DNA of 53,474 nt from Escherichia coli (GCA_017639185.1 GCA_017639185.1_4892.1); one strand, 5' to 3'. Shown: positions 902 to 52,717, numbered from the stretch's first letter. Numbers and translations are program-made. Notes: generated by a model not told the origin, from the sequence alone.

Positions 902-1492
902 GGATTTCCTCTAACTCGGCATAGTCCAGAATAGCAATATGCAGGTCGCACAAATCACACAAGCTGTAAGACGACTTTAATTCTGCAAGGGTCACATGAC
1001 CCTTGAGAATAGGAAGCCAAATGAACCAGTCAGTTTCTTGCGTCCCTGACTGTTGCTTGCGTTTTATTTCGTCAAGGGCGTGGCTAGACCCGCTAGACCT
1101 GACAGGCCATTCCCTTTGAAAAAATCCGCGAACTGATATACCAATCCCTCCTTAAGCACACCGAAGATGTGGCTACGATATGCGTTGAAGTGTTGGTCTT
1201 TACAGTCAGACAGCTTACGCGGTTTGCCATCAACTACAACAACAGTATTGCGGAAGATTAATTCCTCAATAGCTGTCATCTCGTCAGAACCTGCGTTCTC
1301 CAGAACAGCGTCCAACAGGACCAGCATTGCTTTCTTACCGTCCACTTTGCCGTCTTTACCCACAATGTCAGCGTTGCCAATGCCTTTGAACAGCTTACCT
1401 GCTTTTTTCAGGACTGTCCAGGCTTGCAGCGCGTTTGCGAGTGTCATGTTGTACGTTACGTCGTCGATGTCAAATGATTTGGGCTCAGTCAT
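882..1492 (-). CDS. tail assembly chaperone, candidate -1 frameshift-extended form (GT-like)
   Basis: The -1 frame is open from the slippery site T_TTT_TTC (plus 1118..1124) through the gap between chaperone stop (1064) and tape measure start (901), ending at TAG 882..884. Hand-translated extension: FFQREWPVRSSGSSHALDEIKRKQQSGTQETDWFIWLPILKGHVTLAELKSSYSLCDLCDLHIAILDYAELEEIHGDHNR. Confidence 0.4.
1064..1492 (-). CDS. tail assembly chaperone (G-like)
   Basis: 142-aa ORF between the tube-like gene and the tape measure gene, the conserved position of tail assembly chaperones. Carries a slippery heptamer near its 3' end. Confidence 0.55.
   Translation of the reverse strand: MTEPKSFDIDDVTYNMTLANALQAWTVLKKAGKLFKGIGNADIVGKDGKVDGKKAMLVLLDAVLENAGSDEMTAIEELIFRNTVVVVDGKPRKLSDCKDQHFNAYRSHIFGVLKEGLVYQFADFFKGNGLSGLAGLATPLTK
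1118..1124 (-). promoter_or_regulatory. candidate -1 ribosomal slippery heptamer (U UUU UUC)
   Basis: Minus-strand GAT TTT TTC in the chaperone zero frame matches X_XXY_YYZ. Sits 18 codons before the chaperone stop. Confidence 0.4.
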
Positions 1493-1510
1493 TTGTGCTT
1501 TCCTTTATTG

Positions 1511-1942
1511 TTACTGGTCAAAGCCTTCAGTCAACTGCATGCCACCTTGGTGGAACACAATAGAGAAGGTAGTCGGGTTATGGCCGTTACCACGAGTCCA
1601 CGGGGAACCGTCGGTAAAGTAACCTTTCTTACCCCATGCTAAATCCTGGTTTAGCAGGTCTTTAGCTTGCAGCACAAACGGGACGAATCCACGAATGTTG
1701 TTACGCTGCAGGTTGTATTGGTCGTTAAGCCATTTGGCGTCCGGACCACTTTGCTTAACTTTGATAGTCAGCTTAATGGCTTTGGACGGGTTCATAATCT
1801 GGATACCACCGCCATCAGCGCCTGCAAGATAGGTGGAAGCTGGGTCCACCCATTGCACGTCAATGACATCGGCACCGTCTGCCCAGTCGGACAGCTGAAC
1901 ACCATTCAGGCTCAACACGCATTCAGAAGAATCGATGATCAT
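1511..1942 (-). CDS. tail tube-like protein
   Basis: 143-aa ORF directly downstream of the sheath-like gene and upstream of the chaperone and tape measure. Call by synteny only. Confidence 0.5.
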   Translation of the reverse strand: MIIDSSECVLSLNGVQLSDWADGADVIDVQWVDPASTYLAGADGGGIQIMNPSKAIKLTIKVKQSGPDAKWLNDQYNLQRNNIRGFVPFVLQAKDLLNQDLAWGKKGYFTDGSPWTRGNGHNPTTFSIVFHQGGMQLTEGFDQ

Positions 1943-1953
1943 TGATCTGCTCC

Positions 1954-3093
1954 TTAGCGAGTGAAGTTAATCAGGATGTCGCTGGAGTGGATTGCACCAG
2001 CCAGCTTAATCGCGATTTGCATTACAACGGCCTGACGAGCTTCACGCTCATCCAGAGGCTGGTCATCTACGTCAGGGATGTAGATGTAGAAACCTGTTTC
2101 GAGTCGGTCACCATAAGACAGTGTACCAAACTCATCACCGTACCAGATACCAGGTGCAACCAAGCCGTTGTCGACAGCCTGCTGACAAGCAACAGCTGCA
2201 GCACCGGTAAGGCGCTCGTGACCTTTGTTCGTCTGCGGCACCTTCGTGGGTGACGTAGCGATTGAGTTGAAGACGTAAGTCTGAACTGCATTACAGAACC
2301 AGTCTAGACCGTGTACTTCATCCCAGAAGCGCGGCGGCTTGGACGTACCAAGGACAGTACCTTCTGCAAGCATAGCAAAGGTGCTGTAGTAGGTGTACCA
2401 GTTAATACCCAGCGCTTTACACTTGTTAGCTTCAGTAAGCGTTAAAGTGTTGTTCGGTGTAATACCAGGCTCTTGTTTGAACTTCATGGTAATCGTGGTG
2501 CGGTTACCAGAGAAGTTAACGGACAGAGCACGCGCCATAGCAGAGATGTCTGCGTAGTGCTGGTTGTTCTTATCATACTGAAGCCACATATTGTTGTAGC
2601 CTTTACCAGCCAGAACTTTAATCGGGTTGGAGTCGCTGTTTTCAATATGAGTTGCTTTAGTGGTAGTATAGCTGCAACGCTTTTTGTCGTAAGCAGCAAC
2701 AGTTGACGCCAGCAAATCGATGTCATCGTCAGACAGCTCACCAGTAGGTGGGAGCGGACGCAGAACATACCAGTCAGGGTACACATCGTTGAATGCTTTA
2801 ATAGCCGCATCCAGAGTAGAGGTGTTGTTCCATGAGGCGATAACTACTGAACGAGGACGCGGAGATTGTGCAAAGAAAATCTTCAACGCGCCAAGCACAA
2901 CTGAACCAGTACCCCAATAAGACTCGGCTTCAGAGTAGCTGCCGATTTCAACATAGTGTCCGTTTTCGCTGTCAGGAAAAGCAGTGCCAGGGTCCTGAGT
3001 TAAAAGAGCCAGCTTACCGAAGTCACCTTTGCTGATACCAGTTGGAGTGTTGTTCAGTTGAACGTTTACAATCTGGTTTACATTCAACGGCAT
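1954..3093 (-). CDS. tail sheath-like protein
   Basis: 379-aa ORF in the sheath position (before tube, chaperone, tape measure), with baseplate-like genes further downstream. Call by synteny and size. Confidence 0.5.
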   Translation of the reverse strand: MPLNVNQIVNVQLNNTPTGISKGDFGKLALLTQDPGTAFPDSENGHYVEIGSYSEAESYWGTGSVVLGALKIFFAQSPRPRSVVIASWNNTSTLDAAIKAFNDVYPDWYVLRPLPPTGELSDDDIDLLASTVAAYDKKRCSYTTTKATHIENSDSNPIKVLAGKGYNNMWLQYDKNNQHYADISAMARALSVNFSGNRTTITMKFKQEPGITPNNTLTLTEANKCKALGINWYTYYSTFAMLAEGTVLGTSKPPRFWDEVHGLDWFCNAVQTYVFNSIATSPTKVPQTNKGHERLTGAAAVACQQAVDNGLVAPGIWYGDEFGTLSYGDRLETGFYIYIPDVDDQPLDEREARQAVVMQIAIKLAGAIHSSDILINFTR

Positions 3094-3179
3094 TTTTGAT
3101 TACCTCTTGGGTGGACTTTCCGGCCATTATACTCAGTAAGTTTACCCAAGTAAATGGCCGAGGCAAAGTTAATTAATTT

Positions 3180-5312
3180 TTATGCTGCATCGACGGACTG
3201 ATAAGAGCTGTCCGACGCTGTAGCGTTTCTCACAGTTACTGTGGCACCAATACGACATCCACCACTACCAACACCAGTAATAACACCAGCATTACTTACA
3301 GTAGCGACAGTATCGTCTGTAGTTGTATACTGAATGCTATAGCCTGCGTCTGTCTTAGCGTATTCAGGTCTAACAGTTACAACGAGCTGCTGCGTGTTAC
3401 CAACAGTAAGTGCAGGCAGCGAATCCGTAGTAACAGAAAGCTCAGACACGTAAGGAGATGTTGTACCAGAAGCAGCAACACCGTTCATTACAACGTTAGC
3501 AGTAATAGTTGCTGAACCTTCAGACTTAGCAGTCATCAAGCCATTTGCATCTACACTAATGATAGAGTCATCTGACGAGCTATAAGTAACAGTAACGCTC
3601 TTAGAGTCCGACGGATAGATCTCAACATCAAGTTGTTTGGTGTTACCCACAAGCCATTCAGCATACTGCGGATAGACCTGTACCCTCTCAGAAATTTGTG
3701 CCCAAGCAGCTGCGCTAATGTCAGCGCCATTACTAGTTGCGTAAATCCAGATATTACATCCGCCCTCAGCAACACCAGTTACAACGCCAGACGAATCAAC
3801 AGTTGCAATAGCTGGGTTAGCAGATTCGTAACGAATATCAGTTAGATCCGCGTCAGACGGGCTAACAGTGTAAGTGAACTGCTGAGTACCACCGACTGGA
3901 ATACCACCAAGACCATCTGGTGTAATAACAGCCACCTCTGTGCAAGTAGCTACAAACGAAGCAACAAGTCCACCGTCGTCTGTTGTAACTGTAATAGTCG
4001 AAGTTCCAGGAGATTGACCGTATATAACTCCGTTAGTGTCAACAGTAACAGCGTCTGGGTTTGAACTATTGTAGCTAACTTTTTTGTTGGTTGCGTTGTC
4101 AGGTGTTATAACAATTTTAGTCTGCACCTGATGGCCGGCGCTTACTTTAGTCGGAGAGTCAGGAGCCCATGCAACATCCGTAACTGCGATGCTGGGGTCT
4201 GTAACTTTAACCTCGATTCTATCAGTAAAGTTCCCGTCGTTAGTGATAACAGTAACATCAATTAAGCCTGCAGCGTTAGCGGTTACCAAACCAGCTTCAG
4301 TCACAGACGCAACTTCTGATACAGGAGCACTCCATACAACAGATGGGTCAGTAGCATTTTCAGGAGTCACAGTGGCATGTAGCTGAAGAGTGTCACCAAC
4401 TTCCATGGAAGCTGTATCGCCTTCGTCAATACTTACACCGGTAACATTTACAGCAGGTACCCTGACTATAATGTCAAGCGTGTCAGTCTTATCACCGTCA
4501 TTAGTCTTAACAGTAACAGTGGCATTACCAGCTATAATACCCGTAACATTTCCGTCAGTATCCACAGTTGCTACATCAGGCTCACTGCTTTCGTACGTCA
4601 CTGTTTTGTCAGTGGCGTCTTCTGGCGATATACGAATACTAGTCCCAGCTGTGCTTCCGATATTAACGTTAAGAGGCGACTGAGTAAGAAACTCAACTCC
4701 TGTAACGTGTACAACAGGCGGAATAACAGTTACAGTACAGCTATCGAATATAGAGCTGTCAACACCGTACTGTACGTTTACAGTTGTTTCACCATCTCCA
4801 ATGGCAGTGACAAGCCCGTTGTCGCTAACGACAGCAACAGACTCATCATCTGAAATCCAGTAGAAATCAAGATTATCTGCATTAGCAGGTAAATAGGTGT
4901 ATGTCAGGCGTTGAGTCTTGCCCTCTTCAAGCGTCACACTTGTGGGAGACACTGTAACAGATTCAACAAGGATAGGTGCCCGAGCAATGTTAAACTTTGC
5001 CCGTACTGTATAACCGCCGTCAACAGACGTACCAGTCACGTATGCAACACCTTCCGCCAGTGGCTTCACAAATCCGAGCTCATCAACAGTGATAACGTCC
5101 GGGTCGCTAGATTTCCATGCCATACCACGCTCAGTAGCGTTGGTTGGAATGTAACGCACAACTAGCTGAACAGGGTCATCACCCGCGACGATTGAGTACT
5201 CGTAGTTGGAAAGCATTATACCTTCCAGCGGAACATTGGGGGTAAAACCTTTACCCCCGTTGCTCTTACTGAACTGGACGTCGACAACCTCATTAAGTGG
5301 AAGCGACATCAA
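3180..5312 (-). CDS. virion protein with about 7-8 tandem bacterial Ig-like (Big_2-type) domains
   Basis: 710 aa with a recurring unit ending in VATVD..G.VTGV..G.ATVTV (for example VATVDTDGNVTGIIAGNATVTV, IATVDSSGVVTGVAEGG, VAVVSDNGLVTAIGDGETTVNV). Confidence 0.65.
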   Translation of the reverse strand: MMSLPLNEVVDVQFSKSNGGKGFTPNVPLEGIMLSNYEYSIVAGDDPVQLVVRYIPTNATERGMAWKSSDPDVITVDELGFVKPLAEGVAYVTGTSVDGGYTVRAKFNIARAPILVESVTVSPTSVTLEEGKTQRLTYTYLPANADNLDFYWISDDESVAVVSDNGLVTAIGDGETTVNVQYGVDSSIFDSCTVTVIPPVVHVTGVEFLTQSPLNVNIGSTAGTSIRISPEDATDKTVTYESSEPDVATVDTDGNVTGIIAGNATVTVKTNDGDKTDTLDIIVRVPAVNVTGVSIDEGDTASMEVGDTLQLHATVTPENATDPSVVWSAPVSEVASVTEAGLVTANAAGLIDVTVITNDGNFTDRIEVKVTDPSIAVTDVAWAPDSPTKVSAGHQVQTKIVITPDNATNKKVSYNSSNPDAVTVDTNGVIYGQSPGTSTITVTTDDGGLVASFVATCTEVAVITPDGLGGIPVGGTQQFTYTVSPSDADLTDIRYESANPAIATVDSSGVVTGVAEGGCNIWIYATSNGADISAAAWAQISERVQVYPQYAEWLVGNTKQLDVEIYPSDSKSVTVTYSSSDDSIISVDANGLMTAKSEGSATITANVVMNGVAASGTTSPYVSELSVTTDSLPALTVGNTQQLVVTVRPEYAKTDAGYSIQYTTTDDTVATVSNAGVITGVGSGGCRIGATVTVRNATASDSSYQSVDAA

Positions 5313-5320
5313 TCAGCTCC

Positions 5321-5959
5321 TTACTCAGCAGTAACAGTTACTGACGCGGTGTCAGTGAAGCTGCCATCAGCTGTTTTGACAGTGATGGTGACGACGCCAG
5401 CTGCTTTACCAGTCACCAGACCGGTAGCGCTAACAGTAGCTTTAGCCGTGTCATTGGACTCGTAGGTAACAGCTTTGTTAGTAGCGCCAGCAGGCAGCAC
5501 AGTTGCAGTCAGCTGTACAGTAGAGCCTACTACAACGCTGGGCGACTTAGGCGCTAACGTAACACCAGTGACGGCTACAGGCGGAGCAGTTACCGTAATT
5601 GCTACGGTATCGGTTTTGGCAGGGTCAAGCTTGGATTTAGCAGTAATAGTTGCTGAACCTACTTTGATACCCTGAACACGACCTGAACCATCAACAGTGG
5701 CATTAGCAGGTGTATCGCTTTCCCACAATACGGTGACGTCATCTGCGTCTGCCGGGGCTACTGCTGCTGTCAGAGTAGTAAACTCACCAACAGCAATTGA
5801 CTTAGCTTTAGGGGTAACAGTTACACCGGTAACTGGGGTTGGAATGAATTTTCCGTTCTCATCAAGCTTGGTCGGCTTGGCTAACGGGAACTGAGTAACC
5901 GACTCTTGACGCAGGTCTGCGTCTTTAACAGGACGGTTGGCTGTAGTACGATTTGCCAT
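5321..5959 (-). CDS. virion protein with two Ig-like (Big_2-type) domains
   Basis: 212 aa. Repeats ATVDGSGRVQGIKVGSATITA and ATVSATGLVTGKAAGVVTITV. Ala/Thr/Val-rich. Confidence 0.6.
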   Translation of the reverse strand: MANRTTANRPVKDADLRQESVTQFPLAKPTKLDENGKFIPTPVTGVTVTPKAKSIAVGEFTTLTAAVAPADADDVTVLWESDTPANATVDGSGRVQGIKVGSATITAKSKLDPAKTDTVAITVTAPPVAVTGVTLAPKSPSVVVGSTVQLTATVLPAGATNKAVTYESNDTAKATVSATGLVTGKAAGVVTITVKTADGSFTDTASVTVTAE

Positions 5960-6026
5960 CTGGAGAATCCTCTTATTGGGTGCGCCAGCTTATTATAGGC
6001 TGGCGCCTCGGTTAAGTAAATAGTGG

Positions 6027-8984
6027 TTACGGACCTAAATCATAAATATCTGCTTTAGCCCCTTTGTTTTTGTACAGCAGGTATAAGCCCAACCCTCGTA
6101 ATATTTCGCCAGAGTAAAAACCATAGTACATGGCGTTGCTTTCAGGTCCGGTACCAGTTTCAAGGCGTAACGCTGGCGACCAACCACCATCCATTACATG
6201 CCCCGGAATACCAGTTAGGTCATAGTGGTCTTCTAGCTCATTGACAAGCATATCCATCAGCTTATCAAGTCCTGATACTGTTGACCCACAAAGGGCCGAC
6301 ATAGCTGCACCAGCAAGCCATAGTCCACACATGTGACCTGTGAAGTCTGAAGGGACTGGCAGAGCAACACCTTCTTGCGGGAAGTTAGAAGGTGACACAC
6401 CTCCTGACCTTTCCATGAAGTCAAGCAACCATTTTGACCAGTTATCCACATAAGCAATAAGCTTACTCGGAACTGGCTTACCACGGTTTACTAGCTCATA
6501 CCATCCACGTGCTGCGGAGAAATAAGCACGAGGCTGGTAACCTGACCATGCACTACCATTACCCCAGTGATACATGGTAAACGTATCAGGTACACCGTAT
6601 TTAAAGTTATCCCAACGGTTCCAGATAAAAGCAGATGCACCAGGACCTAGCTGACCAAACTTCTTAAAGTACCATTGCTGAGAATCGTACAAAAAGTTAA
6701 CCATGTTGTTCAGCCTGATTGTACCTGCTGCAGTATCGTCATGCGTAAAGACAAACGGATACTGATACCCAGGGTAAGGTAGACCGTGCCAACCGTCAAA
6801 CTGCTGAGAATCAGGGTTATAAATGTTGGAGAACGGAATAACACCAGGCGTATAAGCAAGGTTATCATTCTCATAGTCCAGCACAGTACAGTCACCTAGC
6901 TTAGCTGTGTACGGGTTATCAGCCGAGAAAGTAAGACGGTACTTAATCGTATAACCAATCGGCCAGTTATAGCGAGGCGGAACATCATTCACACAGTACC
7001 AGCTAATACTTGTCGACGTATCAACACCATCAGGCAGTACAAACGAGAACTGCTTAATCTCGCCGAATTGTGGGCTAGCTGGTGGTGTACCTGTGTTTTC
7101 CTGGTATGAAGCCAGCCTGAACTCCCATGTACGAATCTGCTGAGTTACCCAGCCTGGTGCGGCAGGTAAATCACGTACCCAGCTCCAGCCTTGCGTGTCA
7201 GTTACTTTGATGCACAACGGACCTGTAGAAGTATACGTCAGCGAGTTTAAAGGTGCCTGGGAAGATTCCAGTAACCAAAAGCCTATAATGGCACCTGACG
7301 AACTATCAGGTATTGTCATACGAACAGTGTTGCCACGTCTGTTGTCAAGTATGTCAGTACGGTAAGACACCGCAATAGTGGCATTGCCATAATCAGTGGA
7401 TGAACGAATATCAGCTAAGATATACTCAGAACCGTCTGGCTTAGTACCTGCGACAAAATCGCTTAACGGAATGTCGTAGTTAGCAGGCGAAGCACCAAGA
7501 GCAGGTAGCTGTGTGACAAAACGATAGATGTTTTGCTCGACGTCAACCTTCTCACGGTTCATGTACATTTCCACCTTGACACTGATATTCTGACCAGCAT
7601 CATCTTTGCCACCGACCTCTGTACGTATCTTAGCTGTTGGCTTACACTTAAACCATACAGCCTGTTGCTCCAGAGATGATTGAGCTTTTTCGTTCTGACG
7701 CAGAACTATATAACCATTTTCATCACGTGAATATATAGCTTGTGCCAGTTCAGGATAAGACCAATCATAAGAGATGCCATCAGTAAACGGAGATGACGCG
7801 TGAGAGTCTTGACGGAAGAACTGGTCTTGTTTATCAATATCAATATACTCCTCCAGCGTAAACAGGACAGCTTGCCAAGCGTTGTAATACTTTTGCTCTT
7901 TAGTAATTCGCCACAGCATATAGCAGCAGTCGCAGAACCACAACTCAGCATCCGCAGCATTACCCCGCTGAAGCTCGCCGTACAGTGGAACGTTTACAGG
8001 TCTGTTGTGCCATACTTCATTTCGCTTAAGCAAATAACCACCGTGTTCAACAGGAAGCTTAACGGCGTAGTTAAGCAGATACACACCGTTGACAGTGTGG
8101 TCACGGAGTTGAATCTCACCTCTGCGAGAGTTAGGCAGTCCAGTCTCAAGAATCTCGCCTCCCCATAGCTCATCGTTTTTGCCAGGTAGAACACCAATCT
8201 TGTTATTGGTCCACGCAACAATATACTCGATGAGATGTACAGGAGGTTCAGCAGCTGACCAGTCCACAGTGTAGCTTGGTTCACCCAGATACCTCGGCCA
8301 GTCAATCCAGGCTAACTGATTCCACGGGTCAGCTGGCATGGTAGTGATGCGATAATTGTTGTAAATATCGTCCCAGTCAACTTTATTTTTAATAACACGG
8401 ACACCACCATTAATAGCAGGCCATGCCATGTGTCCCCTGTGGGCCCAAGTAGCAACATCCAGGTACTCGCCCCAGAAAGGAGAACCATGAGGGATTTGTG
8501 CTTTGCCGTTAACAAATTTAACAGGCACATTTTTATAGCCGCCCTGTGTTGGTGAATCAGGGTTGATCGGGAAGCTGGCTAGCACAGGCTCTTTGCCATT
8601 ACAAAGCCAGTTAGCTATCCAGCGACGAGGAGTATCAGGGATTGGGTCACCCTCGTAATAGTATTTGACGTAAGCATTGAAGTACTCAATTGCTTTGTCC
8701 AGATACCGCTGTTCCTTAGTAGCAAGGTACGCGTGAATTTCGCCGAGTATCAGCAGCGACTGACTTTCAGACGGAGCATCACCGTTAGGTTGGTACTCCA
8801 TCATAGTGTGCGCAATAAAATGGCGGTTGTTCGACACTACTCCTTCTGGGTTGAAGATATAGTGCTGACGCGTAGCGTCGTCAGTTCTACCAGTATTGCG
8901 CTCAAGAAAGTGGTGGTGACCTTCGATAAGGCTTTCGACATTAGCTCGATGGTCTGATCCGTCTTTAAGCAACATCGTGTGCAT
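6027..8984 (-). CDS. 985-aa Trp/Tyr-rich structural-module protein, function unknown (candidate carbohydrate-active or neck-appendage protein)
   Basis: Long uninterrupted ORF. Start codon overlaps the upstream stop (TAATG at 8982..8986). Aromatic-rich composition. Lies between neck genes and the sheath-like gene. Confidence 0.55.
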   Translation of the reverse strand: MHTMLLKDGSDHRANVESLIEGHHHFLERNTGRTDDATRQHYIFNPEGVVSNNRHFIAHTMMEYQPNGDAPSESQSLLILGEIHAYLATKEQRYLDKAIEYFNAYVKYYYEGDPIPDTPRRWIANWLCNGKEPVLASFPINPDSPTQGGYKNVPVKFVNGKAQIPHGSPFWGEYLDVATWAHRGHMAWPAINGGVRVIKNKVDWDDIYNNYRITTMPADPWNQLAWIDWPRYLGEPSYTVDWSAAEPPVHLIEYIVAWTNNKIGVLPGKNDELWGGEILETGLPNSRRGEIQLRDHTVNGVYLLNYAVKLPVEHGGYLLKRNEVWHNRPVNVPLYGELQRGNAADAELWFCDCCYMLWRITKEQKYYNAWQAVLFTLEEYIDIDKQDQFFRQDSHASSPFTDGISYDWSYPELAQAIYSRDENGYIVLRQNEKAQSSLEQQAVWFKCKPTAKIRTEVGGKDDAGQNISVKVEMYMNREKVDVEQNIYRFVTQLPALGASPANYDIPLSDFVAGTKPDGSEYILADIRSSTDYGNATIAVSYRTDILDNRRGNTVRMTIPDSSSGAIIGFWLLESSQAPLNSLTYTSTGPLCIKVTDTQGWSWVRDLPAAPGWVTQQIRTWEFRLASYQENTGTPPASPQFGEIKQFSFVLPDGVDTSTSISWYCVNDVPPRYNWPIGYTIKYRLTFSADNPYTAKLGDCTVLDYENDNLAYTPGVIPFSNIYNPDSQQFDGWHGLPYPGYQYPFVFTHDDTAAGTIRLNNMVNFLYDSQQWYFKKFGQLGPGASAFIWNRWDNFKYGVPDTFTMYHWGNGSAWSGYQPRAYFSAARGWYELVNRGKPVPSKLIAYVDNWSKWLLDFMERSGGVSPSNFPQEGVALPVPSDFTGHMCGLWLAGAAMSALCGSTVSGLDKLMDMLVNELEDHYDLTGIPGHVMDGGWSPALRLETGTGPESNAMYYGFYSGEILRGLGLYLLYKNKGAKADIYDLGP

Positions 8985-9607
8985 TATTTAATCCATCCAC
9001 CGTTAAAGAAACCCATCCAAGTTGCTCCTGAGTCAAAGGTAAGCAACGTAACAACATCTGTGTAACCCACAAGGAATGACAGAACGGGCTTTCTGTTGTT
9101 TGCCCATTTTATTCTGGGATCCCAAGCGGTCACCTTGTTAGAACCAGTACCTTGCTTAATAGCAATAGTAATCTGACGCGCAACAGTAGACGGGTCAGAC
9201 ACACCACCGATATTAATTACGGTGTTTGGCTGGTTAAGAGTAAGACTGACAATTGTTTTAGATGCAGCAGGTATAGTTACGGTAGCTGCACTTGCAACAT
9301 TGCCATACTCATAGATTGCTGACGTCGAAGATACTGTAGCCTGTTCAGCTGCGGCTTCTGCAGCTTCTTTGGCTGCAATAGCTGCATCACGAGCAGCGCG
9401 CGCCTGGATAGCAGCTTCGTTAGCATTTTCAAAGTTTGGTATAGCTTCATTGATTGCAGCGTTAATGCCTTCGAGTGTGCGTATGACACCGCCTTCCGGG
9501 TTAGGGATGCTTGAGTCGTCTGACATACCGAAGTCATGAATAAGCTGGACAGCAGTTGTTAGCTTATCCAGCTGCGCTTGCAGTTCCGGGTCTACTTCAG
9601 TTGCCAT
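8984..9607 (-). CDS. fibrous virion protein (N-terminal Ala/Glu-rich coiled coil, beta-rich C-terminus)
   Basis: 207 aa. Segment AIQARAARDAAIAAKEAAEAAAEQ followed by a Thr/Val/Ser-rich region. Translationally coupled to the 985-aa gene. Confidence 0.45.
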   Translation of the reverse strand: MATEVDPELQAQLDKLTTAVQLIHDFGMSDDSSIPNPEGGVIRTLEGINAAINEAIPNFENANEAAIQARAARDAAIAAKEAAEAAAEQATVSSTSAIYEYGNVASAATVTIPAASKTIVSLTLNQPNTVINIGGVSDPSTVARQITIAIKQGTGSNKVTAWDPRIKWANNRKPVLSFLVGYTDVVTLLTFDSGATWMGFFNGGWIK

Positions 9608-10164
9608 TACGGTTCCTCTACTGTACCAGTCGCTTTGTTACCGTTATCATCCATACAAGTGATGTCAACCTTGTAGATGTACGGTTGCTCAATTTTAACT
9701 TTATGTACATAGCTAATGTCGACAGTCATCATTGACTTCTGGGCATAGCCTGCACCGATAGCACCACCGACATTATCAATCTTCGATATTTTGGTTATTG
9801 CATAATGTCGTAAACGGTTAAACTGCTTAGCTGGTGAACTACCCAGTGCTATGTGTAGCTTACGCATTAGCTCAGCAGCATTCTTACCGACAGCTGTAAT
9901 ACGTACAGATGTCATCATAGGCTTACTGACGTACTCAAAGCCGTCAGCGCCTTGTCTGGTTCGAGGAGGTCCGAAGTCATATGCGTCGCCAGGGCGCAAG
10001 TAAACATACGGACTACCGTCAACTGTACCAGACTCTTCACCAATAATACATGTCCCGTCAGGTAATGGTAAAAGCTTCTGAACGAGCTCCCTGAGGTCCT
10101 TTATGGAGAATTGCTGTAACGTAGTAGTGGCCATGACGACTCCATGGGTCGATACGGAATACAC
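9607..10164 (-). CDS. neck/tail-terminator-like structural protein
   Basis: ORF in the head-tail joining block. Likely true start at the internal Met (MATTTLQQF, about 10134). Overlaps the upstream gene. Confidence 0.4.
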   Translation of the reverse strand: MYSVSTHGVVMATTTLQQFSIKDLRELVQKLLPLPDGTCIIGEESGTVDGSPYVYLRPGDAYDFGPPRTRQGADGFEYVSKPMMTSVRITAVGKNAAELMRKLHIALGSSPAKQFNRLRHYAITKISKIDNVGGAIGAGYAQKSMMTVDISYVHKVKIEQPYIYKVDITCMDDNGNKATGTVEEP

Positions 10165-10435
10165 GGTATGGTTGGTCTTCGTATATAACGAAGTCTCCGA
10201 GCTTCAGCTCTTGTCCACTGTATATCGCAATACGTGGGAACTCATGCTCGCCATCGTCTTTAGTCAACAGGTTAGGCTGGTTGGTAGCTGCACCAGGTTG
10301 AATGTTACACAGATACTTTGCAGCTGTATATTCGTCTTCGAAGTCGCCATTTGGTAAGCGCGAATCGTTTCGGAGAAGAACATCCGTTAATGCTACAAAG
10401 GTTTTATCCTTCATTAGCGAAGTTATCTTGAGCAT
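10058..10435 (-). CDS. head-tail joining protein (unknown family)
   Basis: 125-aa ORF within the run of four small genes after the capsid gene. Synteny only. Confidence 0.4.
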   Translation of the reverse strand: MLKITSLMKDKTFVALTDVLLRNDSRLPNGDFEDEYTAAKYLCNIQPGAATNQPNLLTKDDGEHEFPRIAIYSGQELKLGDFVIYEDQPYRVFRIDPWSRHGHYYVTAILHKGPQGARSEAFTIT

Positions 10436-10923
10436 TATAGCCTCCAGTTTCTGCCAACCTTGTAACCTATCGAATCATACAACTGCATAGATTCTCTAAG
10501 CGTACCAGGCCCGCGTTTGCGTTCTTCTGTCAGCTCGGTGTTAGGAGGTGGCACGTCACTGTCCATTCTGTCGTGAACAGCGTCAACAAGCATACGGCCT
10601 ATTTTGTCGTTAAGCTCATGTGCAGTCATGCTTCCTCTGAGAACAGCAGGCACATTATCACGGAAAGCTTTGTTTATTGCCTGTCGGCCTTTACCCCTGC
10701 CACCAACAGCACTACGGAGAAAGCTTCGTTCTGGCAGACCGTTAAGACCGTACTCATGCACCATTGCTAGCTCGGCGTTTGTTATACGGTCCCTAGGATT
10801 TATACGTCTGTTGTGCTCTGGATGAACACCTACTGATACGCCTTGACCTTCAAACGACTTAAAGGCACGGTAGGTGAACTCGAACTTTTGTTTGTCACGA
10901 CGTTCAAGGCGTATACGAATCAT
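10435..10923 (-). CDS. HK97 gp10-like tail-component/head-tail joining protein
   Basis: Likely starts at MIRIRLERRD (ATG overlapping the upstream stop at 10923). C-terminal segment NTELTEERKRGPGTLRESMQ resembles the gp10 family by eye. Confidence 0.45.
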   Translation of the reverse strand: MIRIRLERRDKQKFEFTYRAFKSFEGQGVSVGVHPEHNRRINPRDRITNAELAMVHEYGLNGLPERSFLRSAVGGRGKGRQAINKAFRDNVPAVLRGSMTAHELNDKIGRMLVDAVHDRMDSDVPPPNTELTEERKRGPGTLRESMQLYDSIGYKVGRNWRL

Positions 10924-11423
10924 TATACTCTCCGCGCTCTCAGTGATGCACCCACAAGGTGCTTGAGCATGACCTTGACGTCTGAAGTCCAAAGGTCAGT
11001 TGCACCGGTAACACCTGACTTGGAGTCGAAGTATTCAATCTCCAGGTTACCAACTTTCTTACGGCGCAAAGCCTGGTCACCGCGTACACCTTCCTCGCCG
11101 TCGTAGCTCAATACGCTAGCCAGCATATAAAGCTGTGCCAGCTTAACTTCTCGCGGAATTACAGACTCCGCGATGTCAACATTGCATGCACCGAGGCCTG
11201 TACGCGGCCAGGCCATGTTCTGCGTTTTGCTGACCTTACGACCTAGCCAGTTAAACTGGTTATCAAGTCGAATAGCTGCTTTGGCAGCCTGGTAGTACGG
11301 GTCAGTTCCTGGTTGAATGAGAATACCTTCGTTAGTGATAAATTCATCAACTTCTGCAGCGCTAACATACGAGTTAGCACCCGGAACGATTGAACCGTCT
11401 TCCACAACAAGTGTGTATGCCAT
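10923..11423 (-). CDS. head-tail connector (gp6-like) protein
   Basis: 166 aa, first gene after the capsid terminator. N-terminal pattern NSYVSAAEVDEFI...AAKAAIRLDNQ resembles connector/adaptor proteins by eye. Confidence 0.4.
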   Translation of the reverse strand: MAYTLVVEDGSIVPGANSYVSAAEVDEFITNEGILIQPGTDPYYQAAKAAIRLDNQFNWLGRKVSKTQNMAWPRTGLGACNVDIAESVIPREVKLAQLYMLASVLSYDGEEGVRGDQALRRKKVGNLEIEYFDSKSGVTGATDLWTSDVKVMLKHLVGASLRARRV

Positions 11424-11477
11424 ATAAAGCCTCCAGCAAGTTTAGTCCGATTATATACCAGAACTTTATACGTGTAA

Positions 11478-11510
11478 ATAAAAAAGGCGAGCTCGTCAGC
11501 TCGCCTTTTG
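11478..11510. terminator. bidirectional intrinsic terminator downstream of the major capsid gene
   Basis: A-tract, then stem GGCGAGC (11486..11492), loop TCGTCA, stem GCTCGCC (11499..11505), then T-tract. Confidence 0.7.
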
Positions 11511-11527
11511 TTAGTCCCGTTTGTGGG

Positions 11528-12505
11528 TTAGATTGCAGACTTAGCCAGCAACATAACACCAGCGGTGTCTTTGTTGGAAGTCGCAACTTTAGACCAGGAC
11601 GCCTGAGCAGCCAGGTCTTCATCAGTCGGAGACTGACCAGCTTTGTGACCGACCCAGCTGTAGCCTTTCAGCGACACGTTGAAGTCGTATTCACCCTGCA
11701 TCTGACGCAGGATGTTTTCACCACCGGTTTGCTCGGAGGTAACCATGTCGTACAGGCCGCCGACCTGAACGATTGCAGCAGACGGGGTCAGACCCAGAGT
11801 GCGGTACTTAGCGGAAGCACCGGCGCCATCAACCAGAGCCGGGATGTCGGAAACGACATAACGACGACCCAGGAAGTCTTTGTACACGTTCAGGTCACCA
11901 ATCTGGAACAGGTGTTCTGTGTTGTTGATAGCCTGGTCGATGAGGGAGTGGAACGCAGTAGAGTGCATGATGTACGCACGAATCTGCTGAGAACGGTCAC
12001 CCATCTTCGCGTTGACTTTGTTCAGGTTCTGCATGGTGATGTTTGCAGCAGCACCGGAGCCTGAAGTTACGTCCAGAACAACATCAGCGTTTGCGCCGAT
12101 AGCAGCTACCAGACATGCAGCAGTGGTGTTCAGGTAGTCCTGGAACATCGCAGCAGAAGCCTGTGCAGCAACAACAGCTGCTGGTTCAGTATCACCTGCA
12201 CCGATGCGACGCATCATAGTACCGGTAATGTTCAGAGGACCAACACGGCCGTCGATTTTAACAGAGCGGTCCAGAATCTGGCCCAGAGTCTGTGCATCAA
12301 CTTTGTTGGTGCCTGCGTAAGCATTACGGCGAGTAGCGATGCCGTCAACCAGCTGCCACATTGCCTGCTCAACGTAATCACCAATTACGTACTGGTTACC
12401 CAGGATAAGGGTACCTGCAGAAGCTTCGTTGAACTTCTGTACGTCCTGGTCGACCAGTTCGGTGGCGGTAGAACGTACTTGTTCGTTAAAAATATACAGT
12501 GACAT
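11528..12505 (-). CDS. major capsid protein
   Basis: 325-aa ORF directly after the scaffold gene and followed by a strong terminator. Confidence 0.65.
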   Translation of the reverse strand: MSLYIFNEQVRSTATELVDQDVQKFNEASAGTLILGNQYVIGDYVEQAMWQLVDGIATRRNAYAGTNKVDAQTLGQILDRSVKIDGRVGPLNITGTMMRRIGAGDTEPAAVVAAQASAAMFQDYLNTTAACLVAAIGANADVVLDVTSGSGAAANITMQNLNKVNAKMGDRSQQIRAYIMHSTAFHSLIDQAINNTEHLFQIGDLNVYKDFLGRRYVVSDIPALVDGAGASAKYRTLGLTPSAAIVQVGGLYDMVTSEQTGGENILRQMQGEYDFNVSLKGYSWVGHKAGQSPTDEDLAAQASWSKVATSNKDTAGVMLLAKSAI

Positions 12506-12508
12506 AAC

Positions 12509-13222
12509 TTATTTGCCCCATTGTGTGTTTTGGATTTTAGCACGAGCACGTGCTATGCGGTCATCCCCGCCCCCGAAAGTGTGCTGTTCGCCACCGCCGT
12601 TCCCACCAGGATTAGCTCCGCCGCCGTTGGCACCGCCACCGCCAGCCTTGGTTCCACGCACAAGAGGTGCAAACTGCTTATCAGCGCGCATATGTTCCAC
12701 TAGTTCATCTGGCGTTGTAGCAGTCGGGTTACCCATAACATCCACGACAGTAGTACGCCACTTACCATCAATTTCCTGAGCGCGCAGTCGGGCCTTGATG
12801 TGTGGCATAATAAGTGCCGGGGTGTCAGAGAGTTGGTTAGCCAGGTTCAGCGCCAGGTTATCAACCATTTGCGCTTCCAGCTGAGCTTGCAGCTGTGCCT
12901 GACGATTAGTATACTGTTCCAGTTCAGCCTGATGCTTCTCTTTGATAGAGCGCTCAAGAGATTCAACATCACGCTCACGACGTGCGCGTTCTTCTTCAGC
13001 CAGGCGAGCACGTTCAGCTTCTTTTTTCTTTTCTTCGAGAAGCTTTTTGGTGTGCTGTTCCATACGCTGTTTTTCTTTGCGCAGGTCTTCTAATTCTTTC
13101 AGCGTTTTTTCGTCTGGTTCAACGTCCAAACGGAATGCGCCAGATGCTTCGTCTTTGATATACAGGCCACGGAAGCCTTCATCAACTTCGGTAAGGTCAG
13201 TTACAACTGTTTTAAGTGCCAT
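12509..13222 (-). CDS. capsid scaffolding protein
   Basis: 237 aa, highly charged coiled-coil region (EELEDLRKEKQRMEQHTKKLLEEKKKEAERARLAEEERARRERD). Lies between portal and capsid genes. Confidence 0.65.
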   Translation of the reverse strand: MALKTVVTDLTEVDEGFRGLYIKDEASGAFRLDVEPDEKTLKELEDLRKEKQRMEQHTKKLLEEKKKEAERARLAEEERARRERDVESLERSIKEKHQAELEQYTNRQAQLQAQLEAQMVDNLALNLANQLSDTPALIMPHIKARLRAQEIDGKWRTTVVDVMGNPTATTPDELVEHMRADKQFAPLVRGTKAGGGGANGGGANPGGNGGGEQHTFGGGDDRIARARAKIQNTQWGK

Positions 13223-13399
13223 AATTTTACAATCCTATATGAGAGGGGCTCAATCCACTCAAGTGGGCTCTGAACAGGTTTGGGTCAAACCGCGCAGCCA
13301 GCCATCCGAAATCCACTGAGCCCTGCAGACTCTCGTGGCCGGCTGTTGCGCGGTTGACATGAAGGATTATATAGCCAGGTAAACCGAAAGTAAATAGCT

Positions 13400-14962
13400 T
13401 TATTCAGTTTTTTCTGGATTATTTTCCTGCCCATCGCTGTTCTTAGCTGCTTGAGCGTTCTTTTCTGCTTCTTTTGCTACCTCACGTGCATCACGTTCAG
13501 CCAGCTCTTCGTCAATGAGCTTCTTGGCTTCTTCGTCAGTGAGTTTAGCAATGCCAGCCTGTTTGAGATTACTACGCATCTCACTGAACGTGATAGCACC
13601 AGCAATCCATTCGTTAACCAGCTGTTGGCGTTCTTGATACGTCAACTGGCTATAGATGAAGTTGTAGCTCAGGTTAATCGTAATCTCTTCTTTAGGGTGC
13701 CCGTAGAACAGACCACACCATTCGATTGCCTTACGGTAAGCAGCTTCAACGTTCTGCGCAACAGTTACGATAAGCGATGCCTCAGATGCGGCTTCGTTTT
13801 TAATCTCAACTTCGCGTCGTTCTACCTTACCATTCTCACGAATCAGTCGAGCACCGATGGCAATCATCTGCGCTTCTTTCTGCTTCATCGCTTCAAACGG
13901 CTGGGTGTTAGGGCTGGTCTGGATAATACCTACAGCGGCGTTAGCCGGCAGCGGAATACCACCAAACGAACCGAGTCGCAGTTCACCTTTCAGTACATCC
14001 TCAACCCAGGCCTCAGTAAGTCCAGAAGCCCATACTGTGGGTTGACCTGTTACGAAGCATGATTCTTCGTAGTCAGCAGAGTTACGGTAGTGTGCAATAT
14101 TAAGCACAGCTAAGTCGTACATCGGCGGAGGGTCAATCTCAGCGCTGTTTGTTTCAGAACCAATAAACTGGAACGGAATAAACTTCAGCGGTAAGCCATT
14201 GGAGTCGCGTAGGACAACATTCTCTTGCGTGACATACACCGCGCCGCCGGAGACGTTCTGCGCGTTCTTGTCGCCCTTATTGACCCACAAAGACTGGTTG
14301 CAATTGCCTTCTTCATCCAGGTAAAGGTGACGCCACACGGGTGTGTAGTCTTGCTGAAAGCCATCAGTAACCCCCGGTATTTGCTCGCAAATGACAACTT
14401 GAGTGAGCATCACTTTACCGTTGCGATACTCTTCTCGCCAGTTTATAATCTGCCATGGCATGTACAGCGTTACTGTCGGCTGCACTTCTCCGTCCATTAG
14501 TTCTTTACGGGTAAAACCAATGGATTCACCAAACTCACCGATACGTGCTTTTGGAAAGTCAGTCAGCAATCCTGCCCGTCCAAACGCAAGCACTGATTTA
14601 AAGCACTTACGCATTTGCTGAATAGCACCGATACCTGCGCCGTCGATATTTACTTTCAGCACTTCCATATCATCAGGCATCAGCATTTCAGGTTGCTGCT
14701 GGAATACCAGGCCAGTCATACCCGAAAGAGTTCGCTGTAGTACGTTATAGAACACAGCGCGACGCAGGTACGAATTGTACCGCATCAGGTTTTCTTCTGT
14801 GCAGTTCGTAGGGTCAGGACGAGGCAGATAAAAATCACCGCGTGCTTTAACAGCTTCCTGACCCTCGATGCAGTCCTTAATCATTCGGTACTTACCAGCG
14901 TTCTTAGTCAGCTCAGGACGCTGGTATCCGACGTTAGGCGTGCTGCTTGGGGTTATCGACAT
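13400..14962 (-). CDS. portal protein
   Basis: 520-aa ORF immediately downstream of the large terminase gene. Acidic/charged C-terminus. Confidence 0.6.
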   Translation of the reverse strand: MSITPSSTPNVGYQRPELTKNAGKYRMIKDCIEGQEAVKARGDFYLPRPDPTNCTEENLMRYNSYLRRAVFYNVLQRTLSGMTGLVFQQQPEMLMPDDMEVLKVNIDGAGIGAIQQMRKCFKSVLAFGRAGLLTDFPKARIGEFGESIGFTRKELMDGEVQPTVTLYMPWQIINWREEYRNGKVMLTQVVICEQIPGVTDGFQQDYTPVWRHLYLDEEGNCNQSLWVNKGDKNAQNVSGGAVYVTQENVVLRDSNGLPLKFIPFQFIGSETNSAEIDPPPMYDLAVLNIAHYRNSADYEESCFVTGQPTVWASGLTEAWVEDVLKGELRLGSFGGIPLPANAAVGIIQTSPNTQPFEAMKQKEAQMIAIGARLIRENGKVERREVEIKNEAASEASLIVTVAQNVEAAYRKAIEWCGLFYGHPKEEITINLSYNFIYSQLTYQERQQLVNEWIAGAITFSEMRSNLKQAGIAKLTDEEAKKLIDEELAERDAREVAKEAEKNAQAAKNSDGQENNPEKTE

Positions 14963-14963
14963 T

Positions 14964-16412
14964 TTACCGTCCCATATTTATTTTGAGCTTGGTAGTATAA
15001 CGGTTGATGCCACGCAACACCATGTAACGACAATCATCGTATACGTGGTCTTCAGAGTTCGTGTCGACATCTTCCGTGTTGTTCTTGTCACGCGGCAGAA
15101 CCGGCAACGTGTTTATGGCTGCTGGACAGTTTTCCATGAAATAAATGCCCGGCTTTTCCGTTTCGTCCATCTTAACATTTTTCAGAAGCTGACGGAATAG
15201 CTCTAAGCCATTTATTCTCGAACCTTGTGACTTGTCGGCCTTGACCCAGGTTACGCCTTCGTCTTCCATTTTCTTCGCGATAGTCTCAACGTCTTTTTCC
15301 TTGCACGCATAAATCTGACTATCCGCCGGACCAGGATTAACGTTACTTTGAATCCAGCCACCAGCCTGCAGATTTTCCTGTAGGCGAAGAACACCTTGAG
15401 CGACTTCGGCAGCAGATAGCTTAATACCCCTGTTAGCTTCTTTTTCAGAGCACCCATACCATTCAGCTATACGTATAATTGAACCACGCGGAATAAAGTA
15501 CTCATTGCCTTCGTCGTCTGTAAGCGAGGCACCATTTGCGATAGCCCAGATACCAACAGAGAACGGGTGAGTAGAACCCCAGTCAAGAGAACGTTCGATA
15601 GTCCAGCCTTTCGGAATACGCATACGCGGCAGAATACACTTGGTTGACCATACGTCGTCAAGCGCACCACCAGCAACAATATCCCAGTCACCCTCTTTCA
15701 TCGCAGCAACAAGAGCCGGGTCACCAAGACCTTCAAGACGGTCACCGTAGTCAGGGTCGTTTTCCATCAGCGTAGGGTTATCAGTCATCTTAGCCGGAAT
15801 GTACTGACGAGCCATACCGCCTTCGCGTTTTTCCTGCTTAACGATTTTCATCGGAGGAGCAGCAGTTACGAAAGTGCGCTTAACCCAGTTATGACCAACA
15901 CCACCAGGGTTTGACCCACAAAAGATGAGTGGCAGTGGCCGGAAAAAGTTCTCAGGTACTTTGAGAGCACCGAGTCGGACACGGTTACGCAAGAAGCGGT
16001 ACATCGTTTCTGTGAAGTGAGTAAGCTCATCCATCAGCAGAACGTGAATCTCCGCACCCTGGTAGGTATAAATATCTTTTTCGTACTGGAGGTGACAGAG
16101 TTTGATGTTCGCACCGTTCCAGAATTTGATAGTGTTGCTCGAGTAGTTAATCTTGCACTTGCCAGCTTTGCACATACCATCCAGCAAGGCAGGATAACTT
16201 GTGGGACCAACCATGTGGTTAGCCGTAAGGTCGTTATAGTTTCGGCGGAAAAGGTAAATCTGCAAGTCAGGAATCATGCAACACATGATAATTGACATTA
16301 CACGCATAAGGTGAGACTTACCACCACCAGCAGCACCACCGTACAGAATCTCAGTTGCCTGAGACTGCAGAGCGGCACCTTGTCTGTCATGCAGGTGAAA
16401 GTCAAGATTCAT
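14964..16412 (-). CDS. terL: terminase large subunit
   Basis: Walker A YGGAAGGGKSH near the N-terminus, Walker B-like VLLMDE, nuclease-sized C-terminal half. Followed by the portal gene. Confidence 0.85.
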   Translation of the reverse strand: MNLDFHLHDRQGAALQSQATEILYGGAAGGGKSHLMRVMSIIMCCMIPDLQIYLFRRNYNDLTANHMVGPTSYPALLDGMCKAGKCKINYSSNTIKFWNGANIKLCHLQYEKDIYTYQGAEIHVLLMDELTHFTETMYRFLRNRVRLGALKVPENFFRPLPLIFCGSNPGGVGHNWVKRTFVTAAPPMKIVKQEKREGGMARQYIPAKMTDNPTLMENDPDYGDRLEGLGDPALVAAMKEGDWDIVAGGALDDVWSTKCILPRMRIPKGWTIERSLDWGSTHPFSVGIWAIANGASLTDDEGNEYFIPRGSIIRIAEWYGCSEKEANRGIKLSAAEVAQGVLRLQENLQAGGWIQSNVNPGPADSQIYACKEKDVETIAKKMEDEGVTWVKADKSQGSRINGLELFRQLLKNVKMDETEKPGIYFMENCPAAINTLPVLPRDKNNTEDVDTNSEDHVYDDCRYMVLRGINRYTTKLKINMGR

Positions 16413-51821: not shown

Positions 51822-52717
51822 CAGAATATGCCTCGTAAGTTAAAGCCAAACATGTCACCGAGTGTTACACCAAAACCGCGGTTATCGTTTACACGTTTCT
51901 CGCTAATCGGTGTAGTTGTGTTTATGTCCTTCTTACTGGTGGCATCACCCTGTCCTTGTGCACGTCCGCTTTTCTTAGTGCCGTTATTAGCAGGGCGGCC
52001 TGTCGACTTAGCGGCTACAGCGTTTGTAACTACAATCGGCACTTCGATGACTTCACGGAACGTAAGGGTAAACGTAGCTGAACCGTCTTTCTCCTGTACA
52101 ACACGAACAGACTTCAAAAGCATATTCGTATACTTGAAGATACCAGTGTCAACGTCACAGTAGATAACGTTTTTCTGTAAATCCAGCAAGGTACGGTATA
52201 CCTGTTCAATCCTCATATTGTCCGAAGACTTAAGCTGTTCAGCTATACTAAAGTCAGGAAGCCATGGAACTAAAGAGCGTGAAATGGTAGCGTCTAAACC
52301 GCCCCAGTCTATAAAGGATGCTAGCTTGTTAACAGCAAAGTCCCTTGTTCCTTCAAGCGCAGTAGACACTACCTGTGGAAGCTGAATATCATCCAAGAAA
52401 TCCATAGACCGTAGACCGGTTACATCCTTAATTGTTGACTCTTGAATTGACTCGTCGATATAACCAACTACCACGCCAGTTACAGTAATAACTTTTGGTT
52501 GTACTGCAGCATGGTCCGAAGCCTTAGCCCCGGACTCAAGTTCATTGTCAGCGATGTCAAGGTCAGACTGATGTTCCTCATTGGTGACAGCATCCATCTT
52601 AATGCCTCCGCAGTTGCGGAAGCGTAAGGTGGTCGTACCGTCGCCCATGAGTCTGTCGCGGGCTTCTTGGTACAAGTCGTTGGCAGCATCAGTAATTCCA
52701 GCAAAGATGTCACTCAT
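51821..52717 (-). CDS. tail protein downstream of tape measure (distal tail / DNA-circulation-like)
   Basis: 298-aa ORF immediately after the tape measure stop. Confidence 0.35.
   Translation of the reverse strand: MSDIFAGITDAANDLYQEARDRLMGDGTTTLRFRNCGGIKMDAVTNEEHQSDLDIADNELESGAKASDHAAVQPKVITVTGVVVGYIDESIQESTIKDVTGLRSMDFLDDIQLPQVVSTALEGTRDFAVNKLASFIDWGGLDATISRSLVPWLPDFSIAEQLKSSDNMRIEQVYRTLLDLQKNVIYCDVDTGIFKYTNMLLKSVRVVQEKDGSATFTLTFREVIEVPIVVTNAVAAKSTGRPANNGTKKSGRAQGQGDATSKKDINTTTPISEKRVNDNRGFGVTLGDMFGFNLRGIF

Follow-up and report, generated by a model that had tools for sequence, protein, structure and literature searches.

The stretch of DNA analysed here (53,474 nucleotides from the Escherichia coli assembly GCA_017639185.1, GCA_017639185.1_4892.1, hereafter the window) is a Rosemountvirus myophage, the genus being taken from matching records with retrieved taxonomy. 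Two adjacent genes of its structural module, encoding proteins of 207 and 985 amino acids (aa), constitute a mobile two-gene tail-accessory cassette that is carried by myophages, siphophages and podophages. From its structural model, the large protein is inferred to be a glycan-acting enzyme with a core of the GH8/GH48 type (GH, glycoside hydrolase), an (alpha/alpha)6 barrel. The reading adopted for the whole, held at about even odds, is that of a tail-accessory cassette whose large protein is a predicted glycan enzyme, with cellulose made by the bcs genes as the most likely target. The two genes are:

8984-9607, minus strand: gene of the 207-aa protein
6027-8984, minus strand: gene of the 985-aa protein

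The family of the large protein had been described before as a putative tail glycosidase, phi92 gp141 being given as a putative "glycosidase" tail protein in a review table. The anatomy of the cassette, the assignment of a fold with candidate catalytic residues, and the association with cellulose-synthesis genes in three lineages are new. The original prediction, made on this DNA from the sequence alone, placed four genes between the last head-tail joining gene and a sheath-like gene, and was essentially correct: a tail terminator (PF23961) and a sheath (PF11863) flank four minus-strand open reading frames. The 985-aa gene is, as had been proposed, translationally coupled to the 207-aa gene by a stop/start overlap (TAATG), and the stop codon of the terminator gene overlaps the start of the 207-aa gene in the same way. 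The extent of the module needs correction, however, because the interval 5321-9607 covers 4.3 kb and three genes only, the four genes together occupying 3180-9607 (6.4 kb); the proposed size of about 7.7 kb is attained only when the sheath gene is counted in.

The 985-aa family was found in 533 phage records (about 1% of phage records) and in 310 protein clusters, and a scan of 1.84 billion representatives gave 252 clusters at 50% identity that match it. PHROG 2871 is homologous to the window protein over its full length (1420 bits). Identity to the window protein is 82% in Loughboroughvirus, 47% in Seoulvirus, 45% in Kolesnikvirus (Erwinia) and 29% in rV5-like phages; for single proteins it is 42% over 96% of the length (phi92 gp141), 46-58% (M7 gp042) and 30% (VAP7 gp020). 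The family is also present in podophages of about 41 kb, and 42-50% identity is kept from Salmonella to Pseudomonas and Acinetobacter. It is a common but tightly conserved family, and its conservation from host to host is unusually high for a tail protein.

A small gene lies directly 5' of the large one in a Pseudomonas fluorescens HP1/P2-like prophage, a siphophage, Erwinia phage M7, Vibrio phage VAP7 and phi92, and over their C-terminal 65-110 residues or so, these five small proteins share 35-41% identity with the C-terminus of the 207-aa protein. In a sixth lineage, a small protein with a PF26209 domain is encoded ahead of the large gene. Start and stop codons of the two genes overlap in M7, phi92 and the siphophage L004. 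The counterparts of the cassette are phi92 gp140/gp141, M7 gp041/gp042 and VAP7 gp019/gp020. Its site in eight other lineages is a baseplate, tail-tip or tail-adaptor gene cluster, and the partners to which the 985-aa family is found fused are the N-terminal domain of P2 gpI, a lambda gpM-like domain, the GP4 fibre-tail adaptor and non-contractile sheath domains. In some siphophages, a C-terminal extension of about 700 aa that includes Big_2 domains brings the family member to about 1690 aa in total. The L004 contig (61.7 kb) encodes such a fusion of 1693 aa at 10001-15082, approximately the sum of the 985-aa and 709-aa proteins of the window, and the gene comes after that of a lambda J-like tip protein; the same fusion gene is present on contig L005, with a GTP cyclohydrolase I gene nearby.

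The phi92 pair (gp140 of PHROG 27998 type and gp141 of PHROG 2871, also represented by PVP-SE1 gp051/gp050 and by the "tail protein" of rV5-like phages) is stop/start-coupled as in the window, and the C-terminal domain of its small protein is 39% identical to that of the window, but the long N-terminal region is missing. It is located within the baseplate cluster, between spike and wedge genes, whereas the window pair follows the tail terminator gene. The "gp38" of vB_EcoM_SD286 was considered as a counterpart to the four-gene block and discarded as irrelevant, being a 123-aa protein of the early region.

The homologue of the 985-aa protein is shown to be a virion protein by the literature on Loughboroughvirus S144, in which ORF16-19 make up an equivalent block of four genes, likewise set between connector and sheath. 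In the part of the S144 report that was available, mass spectrometry of virions gives 3 peptides for gp16, 25 peptides for gp17 (33% coverage) and 17 peptides for gp18 (80% coverage), and does not list gp19, the homologue of the 709-aa protein, among the proteins (PMC7432712). The 25 peptides of gp17 bear out the presence in virions that had been supposed for the large protein. The same portion of the report mentions a "hydrolase" hint from HHpred for ORF17, which its authors found unlike a tailspike or fibre (PMC7432712), and holds no analysis of substrate, fold or cassette. SE4 belongs to the same genus as S144, and its proteins share 77-83% identity with those of the window, except for the homologue of the 709-aa protein (only about 48%, and one immunoglobulin-like domain shorter).

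The 985-aa protein was modelled with AlphaFold2 (AF2) at a mean predicted local distance difference test score (pLDDT) of 89.4 and a predicted template modelling score (pTM) of 0.85. In this model, an (alpha/alpha)6 barrel is built from the helices of residues 13-109, 344-378 and 752-974, and is interrupted by a beta-rich insertion (approximately residues 121-340) and by two beta-sandwiches (approximately 400-705). The parts of the protein, all on the minus strand, are:

8625..8984, minus strand: residues 1-120, barrel helices 1-3, with the invariant motif T[TS]EGQ (E73)
7965..8624, minus strand: residues 121-340, beta-rich insertion, including the variable patch 200-249
7797..7964, minus strand: residues 341-396, barrel helices 4-5, with the invariant motif NA[AS]D[AG]E-W (D345, E347)
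6870..7787, minus strand: residues 400-705, two beta-sandwich domains that resemble carbohydrate-binding modules
6027..6782, minus strand: residues 735-985 and stop codon, C-terminal half of the barrel, with invariant RWD (R790, D792), H884 and E960

Foldseek matches of the model include GH48 cellulases and the carbohydrate-binding module CBM11 (probability 1.0, TM score of about 0.5 on the target). The suggestion that the protein is a carbohydrate-binding or polysaccharide-degrading enzyme is supported by these matches at the level of the fold, but not by any Pfam, NCBIfam or PDB sequence. Its richness in tryptophan and tyrosine, also pointed out at the outset, was confirmed (9.9% W+Y, with 0.9-6.9% for nine further structural proteins encoded in the window). 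In an alignment of 63 sequences (30-99% identity), 71 positions are invariant, among them E73, D345, E347, R790, D792, E960, H55, H884 and many W/Y residues, and these carboxylates and aromatics argue for an active site. Residues 200-249 (8238-8387) have the look of a surface patch that varies while the rest of the protein is conserved: 11 of the 31 differences between the large proteins of phages SPLA2 and SPLA11 fall there, and M7 gp042 has an additional insertion of about 135 residues at this position. A classical trimeric right-handed beta-helix tailspike depolymerase was rejected for the 985-aa protein, which does not show a parallel beta-helix.

The (alpha/alpha)6 barrel is the fold of GH8 (clan GH-M), and further likenesses were found with the GH8 endoglucanases of cellulose synthase operons (BcsZ, CMCax). 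In both groups, equivalent helix starts bear three short motifs whose order is preserved, TTEGQS, NAADAE-W and RWDN in the 985-aa family corresponding to TSEGQS, ASD[AG]D-W and SYDA in GH8; the likeness of NAADAE-W to the SASDGDVW stretch of BcsZ was seen by eye only. E. coli BcsZ has TSEGQS at its catalytic Glu55 and ASDGDVW downstream. The sole match obtained with hhalign pairs E73 with this catalytic acid, at a non-significant E of 0.097, and D345 and D792 are invariant. A role as general acid of the 985-aa protein is possible for E73, and D345 and D792 may supply the remaining catalytic carboxylates. The GH8 endoglucanases differ in that, in the 985-aa protein, beta domains of about 220 and about 350 residues split the barrel, and BcsZ-type enzymes are periplasmic whereas the 985-aa family is a virion protein. 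Neither the whole protein nor a barrel-only construct gave a Pfam match, PF01270 included, even at E 10. Kinship with GH8 is considered as a lead, and not as membership.

Membership of GH48 was rejected, the protein giving no PF02011 match. The relevant comparison here is Erwinia phage S6, in which gp094 (GH48) and gp095 (GH5) are virion-associated cellulases of the tail region, linked to bacterial cellulose as first receptor. S6 gp094 shares the (alpha/alpha)6 barrel with the 985-aa protein, but both S6 enzymes have unambiguous Pfam assignments (GH48, E 1.5e-198; GH5, E 5e-44) and the 985-aa family matches neither; its hhalign comparison with gp094 was not significant (probability 0.3%).

The 207-aa protein comprises two parts:

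9317..9607, minus strand: residues 1-97, with helix 7-28, a hairpin, helix 45-55 and a long Ala-rich helix 59-97 (AF2 and alignment)
8987..9316, minus strand: residues 98-207, conserved C-terminal beta-sandwich, PF26209 (Phage_phiTE_241_C type)

It had been described as a coiled-coil fibrous protein. One long helix (residues 59-97) fits this description, whereas the C-terminal part (residues 101-206) is a globular beta-sandwich in the AF2 model. Searches of Pfam, NCBIfam and PDB sequences with the 207-aa protein gave no useful match. Its beta-sandwich resembles the N-terminal region of CBA120 TSP4, and the N-terminal docking domains of TSP4, together with the adaptor sandwiches of T4 gp10 type, are among the closest known systems. 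Residues 1-97 are missing or different in the homologues of VAP7, phi92, M7 and contig L002, and no similarity was found between this N-terminus and the tail fibre, the gpI-like protein or the 709-aa protein of the same phage. The 207-aa protein would be an adaptor, in which the lineage-specific N-terminus docks to the virion, the helix of about 40 residues forms a short stalk, and the conserved C-terminal beta-sandwich holds the 985-aa protein.

The proposed substrate rests on reports of bcs dependence. According to the available part of a transposon-insertion (TraDIS) screen, bcs genes are susceptibility genes for the Rosemountvirus SPLA2 (PMC10949491), whose large protein is 98.5% identical to that of the window. 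Kolesnikvirus M7, in which gp041/gp042 are the cassette, is described as cellulose dependent in the accessible text of its report (PMC13101476). The third case is Vibrio phage BX-1, 99.7% identical to VAP7, which needs bcsE for adsorption (PMC11792527); the cassette of VAP7 is gp019/gp020, and VAP7 was among the matches of the family before the BX-1 case turned up. No phage-side determinant of bcs dependence is named in the BX-1 paper (PMC11792527), nor for SPLA2 or M7 in the portions of their reports that could be consulted. Of the four phages for which the searchable literature reports bcs dependence, three carry the 985-aa family, and the fourth, Erwinia S6, has the GH48 and GH5 cellulases; the literature search found none beyond SPLA2, M7, BX-1 and S6. 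The bcsG mutation of PhiWec186/187 was not retained as a further case because its authors judged the mutation irrelevant. A substrate that does not vary between hosts would explain the unusual cross-host conservation of the 985-aa family.

The two other genes of the block encode proteins with immunoglobulin-like (Ig) domains, designated Ig1 and Ig2, and the tandem Ig-like domains predicted for both were recovered as Big_2 domains. They are listed here with the promoter-like sites of the region:

5321-5959, minus strand: Ig1, 212 aa, with a conserved 45-residue N-terminus and two Big_2 domains (PF02368, E 1.7e-34); best PHROG match 215
3180-5309 or 3180-5312, minus strand: Ig2, 709 or 710 aa, with eight Big_2 stretches (PF02368, E 7.3e-97); the ATG at 5309 agrees with the annotated length
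5992-6020, minus strand: promoter-like site before the Ig1 gene, TTTACT-N17-TATAAT
3126-3154, minus strand: promoter-like site before the sheath gene
16767-16739, 13394-13366, 11478-11450, 6020-5992 and 3154-3126, minus strand: the full set of five near-identical promoter-like sites, ATTTAC[TA]-N17-TATAAT, each in an intergenic gap of the structural module

The promoter motif has a single further exact match in the window, at +22595. These five sites would divide the region into three units (Ad1 to the 985-aa gene; Ig1 and Ig2; the sheath gene onwards), and expression of the pair of 207-aa and 985-aa genes would therefore go with that of the neck genes, separate from that of the Ig genes. With the promoter-like site 6020-5992 intervening, the Ig genes appear to lie outside the operon of the pair. 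Inverted repeats are present within the spacers of sites 6020 and 3154, and a strong terminator hairpin (11509-11482) is found 3' of the capsid gene.

Loughboroughvirus SE4 has exactly the same residues 1-24 of Ig2 (nt 5238-5309) as the window, the remainder being about 46% identical, and two relatives that are more distant retain the motif M-LPL[NK][ED][IV]V[DN]VQ. This N-terminus resembles that of the sheath (nt 3037-3093; M-L-VN--VNVQL, with the core VNVQL) in four lineages (the window, L016, L021 and L022), and a shuffle test of the likeness gave 0.45% for the window pair. In contractile tails, N-terminal strands of the sheath mediate subunit-subunit contacts. Ig2 may dock on the sheath lattice through an N-terminus that mimics such a strand, and this likeness is the sole observation that favours a position near the sheath end. 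The length of Ig2 varies, with 709 aa and eight Ig domains in the window and in SPLA2, and 622-624 aa in SPLA11, SE4 and the more distant KE26 (coordinates compared: window, 3180-5309; L017, 16090-18219; L018, 1888-3756), and Ig2 is the largest structural difference between SPLA2, which is bcs dependent, and SPLA11.

Whether the Ig proteins belong functionally to the cassette is the first point on which another explanation has to be weighed. They could be decoration proteins of Hoc type, on the capsid or tail tube, functionally unlinked to the 207-aa and 985-aa proteins and adjacent to them only incidentally, which we regard as possible though not the favoured account. Their placement in a predicted transcription unit of their own fits this, as does the best PHROG match of Ig1, a "head and packaging" Ig structural protein. 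The Ig1 homologue, S144 gp18, also has the highest coverage (80%) among the structural proteins quoted in the available S144 text, a value that would suit an abundant decoration protein. Against it, the siphophage fusions of the 985-aa family with an extension containing Big_2 domains suggest that the two can cooperate, and the N-terminus of Ig2 is like that of the sheath and not like a capsid protein.

As regards the substrate, several results weigh against a cellulose-directed enzyme. Searches of the 985-aa protein against Pfam, NCBIfam and PDB sequences gave no match, the sole signal being a sub-threshold helix-hairpin of GH76, and the fold cannot tell apart GH8, GH105, GH76, GH48, GH88 and epimerases. 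The hhalign comparison of the family alignment with a BcsZ profile was not significant (E 0.097, 8 columns; the profile is shallow, with 20 sequences, only homologues of at least 61% identity being listed), and neither was that with E. coli BcsZ as a single sequence. The large protein of SPLA11 is 96.9% identical to that of the window, yet the genes reported for SPLA11 concern lipopolysaccharide (LPS) and not bcs; since all structural proteins of SPLA2 and SPLA11 are 93-99% identical except Ig2 (709 vs 622 aa), this comparison fails to isolate the 985-aa protein. Many carriers, such as rV5-like phages and the phi92-like phage alia, infect E. coli K-12, a cellulose-negative strain, and the protein therefore cannot be essential for every carrier. 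In the portions of the reports available, the SPLA2 data are a screen and the M7 data a statement of unpublished or cited work, neither of them a defined phage-side mapping, and bcs dependence could be due to another tail protein instead. As for the place of the cassette on the virion, a cryo-electron microscopy study of phi92 (2026) left gp140 unplaced in its density maps, and gp141 is unmentioned in the available section.

Some of these results would also be expected if the large protein acted on another glycan (LPS core or O-antigen, enterobacterial common antigen, poly-N-acetylglucosamine (PNAG) or colanic acid) or were a non-catalytic lectin, the bcs link being coincidental or indirect. 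We consider this rather unlikely. It would accommodate SPLA11, where a near-identical protein goes with a screen that points to LPS and gtrB, as well as the carriers isolated on E. coli K-12, the LPS-dependent Seoulvirus phages that also carry the family, and a fold that matches many GH families and epimerases. Deletion of bcsE in Vibrio, after which cellulose was still produced and yet BX-1 adsorption was blocked (PMC11792527), likewise agrees with an indirect link. The distribution of the family speaks for cellulose instead: a family present in only about 1% of phage records is carried by three of the four bcs-dependent phages, the remaining one having classical cellulases, and two of the three bcs cases surfaced after the hypothesis was formed. 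A lectin without catalysis is further disfavoured by the invariant carboxylates and aromatics.

The position of the cassette on the virion is the third point. The original prediction favoured a neck or collar appendage, and it may be asked whether the Rosemountvirus cassette, possibly with the Ig proteins, is attached there and not to the baseplate; the biochemistry could be the same, the attachment site differing. This is judged unlikely, although three sequence features would suit it. The 207-aa and 985-aa genes appear to share a transcript with the neck genes, starting from the promoter-like site 11478, and to be translationally coupled to the tail terminator gene; the 97 N-terminal residues of the small protein are confined to this phage group and unlike the tail fibre, the gpI-like protein and Ig2; and the likeness of the Ig2 N-terminus to the N-terminal sheath strand in four lineages would suit a free sheath end. 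Gene order is nevertheless the sole direct evidence for a neck location. The eight other contexts of the cassette are baseplate, tail-tip or tail-adaptor clusters, and the family is fused to P2 gpI, a lambda gpM-like domain and the GP4 fibre-tail adaptor. Collar, whiskers or neck are not mentioned in the paper on swi3, the one Rosemountvirus paper searched for these words, nor in the S144 text as far as it was available.

In the cassette reading that we prefer, the predicted enzyme of 985 aa would bind, and probably cleave, a surface exopolysaccharide that is chemically alike across many Gram-negative hosts, most likely bcs-made cellulose, perhaps in its phosphoethanolamine-modified form. Binding to cellulose would attach the phage in a first, reversible step and open a path through the matrix, after which the Mu-type tail fibre (46354-47694) would engage its receptor. 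Ig1 and Ig2, transcribed separately, would probably be decoration proteins for weak adhesion, with Ig2 perhaps held on the sheath lattice through an N-terminal strand like that of the sheath itself. A more far-reaching version remains doubtful: phi92 gp141-like proteins would be an unrecognised GH family, distantly of GH8/GH48 type, and a widely shared phage "cellulase" or binder of phosphoethanolamine-cellulose through which myophages, siphophages and podophages of many Gram-negative hosts could exploit bcs-made cellulose as a first receptor, and the Rosemountvirus module would have moved beside the neck genes together with sheath-mimic Ig fibres.

The surrounding genes of the structural module are all on the minus strand, and those that complete the order are:

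14964-16412, minus strand: large terminase
13400-14962, minus strand: portal
12509-13222, minus strand: scaffold
11528-12505, minus strand: major capsid protein
10923-11423, minus strand: adaptor Ad1
10435-10992, minus strand: Neck1 / tail completion
10058-10435, minus strand: small head protein
9607-10134 (annotated) or 9607-10164, minus strand: tail terminator, PF23961 Phage_tail_terminator_9 (E 3.9e-17)
1954-3093, minus strand: sheath of DUF3383 type, PF11863 (E 1e-72), PHROG 205
1511-1942, minus strand: tube
1064-1492, minus strand: tail assembly chaperone

The terminator start is uncertain: the overlap with the gene of the small head protein is about 77 nt with the start at 10134, and 107 nt with a GTG start at 10164. 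Since the tape measure gene extends beyond the window at either end (1-1000 and 52714-53474), the window is read as a circularly permuted full genome; the tape measure gene spanning the ends is followed by baseplate genes, the Mu gpS-type tail fibre and two chaperones. Bases 1000-12600 are 98.6% identical to the Salmonella phage emiel and at least 96.8% identical to each of the 25 best-matching records listed, and 53 near-identical phage records cover at least 80% of this stretch, with the four-gene layout annotated likewise. A sheath 99.2% identical to that of the window phage occurs in PP583539.1, a record titled "Listeria phage 220426122051", and MG065672 and MG065658, titled "Campylobacter phage" (approximately 135-141 kb), carry the 985-aa family at 29%, as in rV5-like coliphages; the host labels of these records are probably wrong.

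Polysaccharide enzymes borne by virions decide which bacteria a phage reaches, and are sought as anti-biofilm tools. Most of those known are beta-helix tailspikes directed against one capsule or O-antigen each, and cellulose is a major polymer of the biofilm matrix of Salmonella and E. coli. The 985-aa family has a different fold and no Pfam or NCBIfam assignment, and is present in hundreds of sequenced phages, including candidates for therapy or biocontrol against Salmonella, E. coli, Erwinia and Vibrio. Targeting of cellulose, if true, would explain three separate reports of bcs dependence, would indicate which further phages are expected to use or break down the cellulose matrix, and would provide a new enzyme family for dispersing biofilms.

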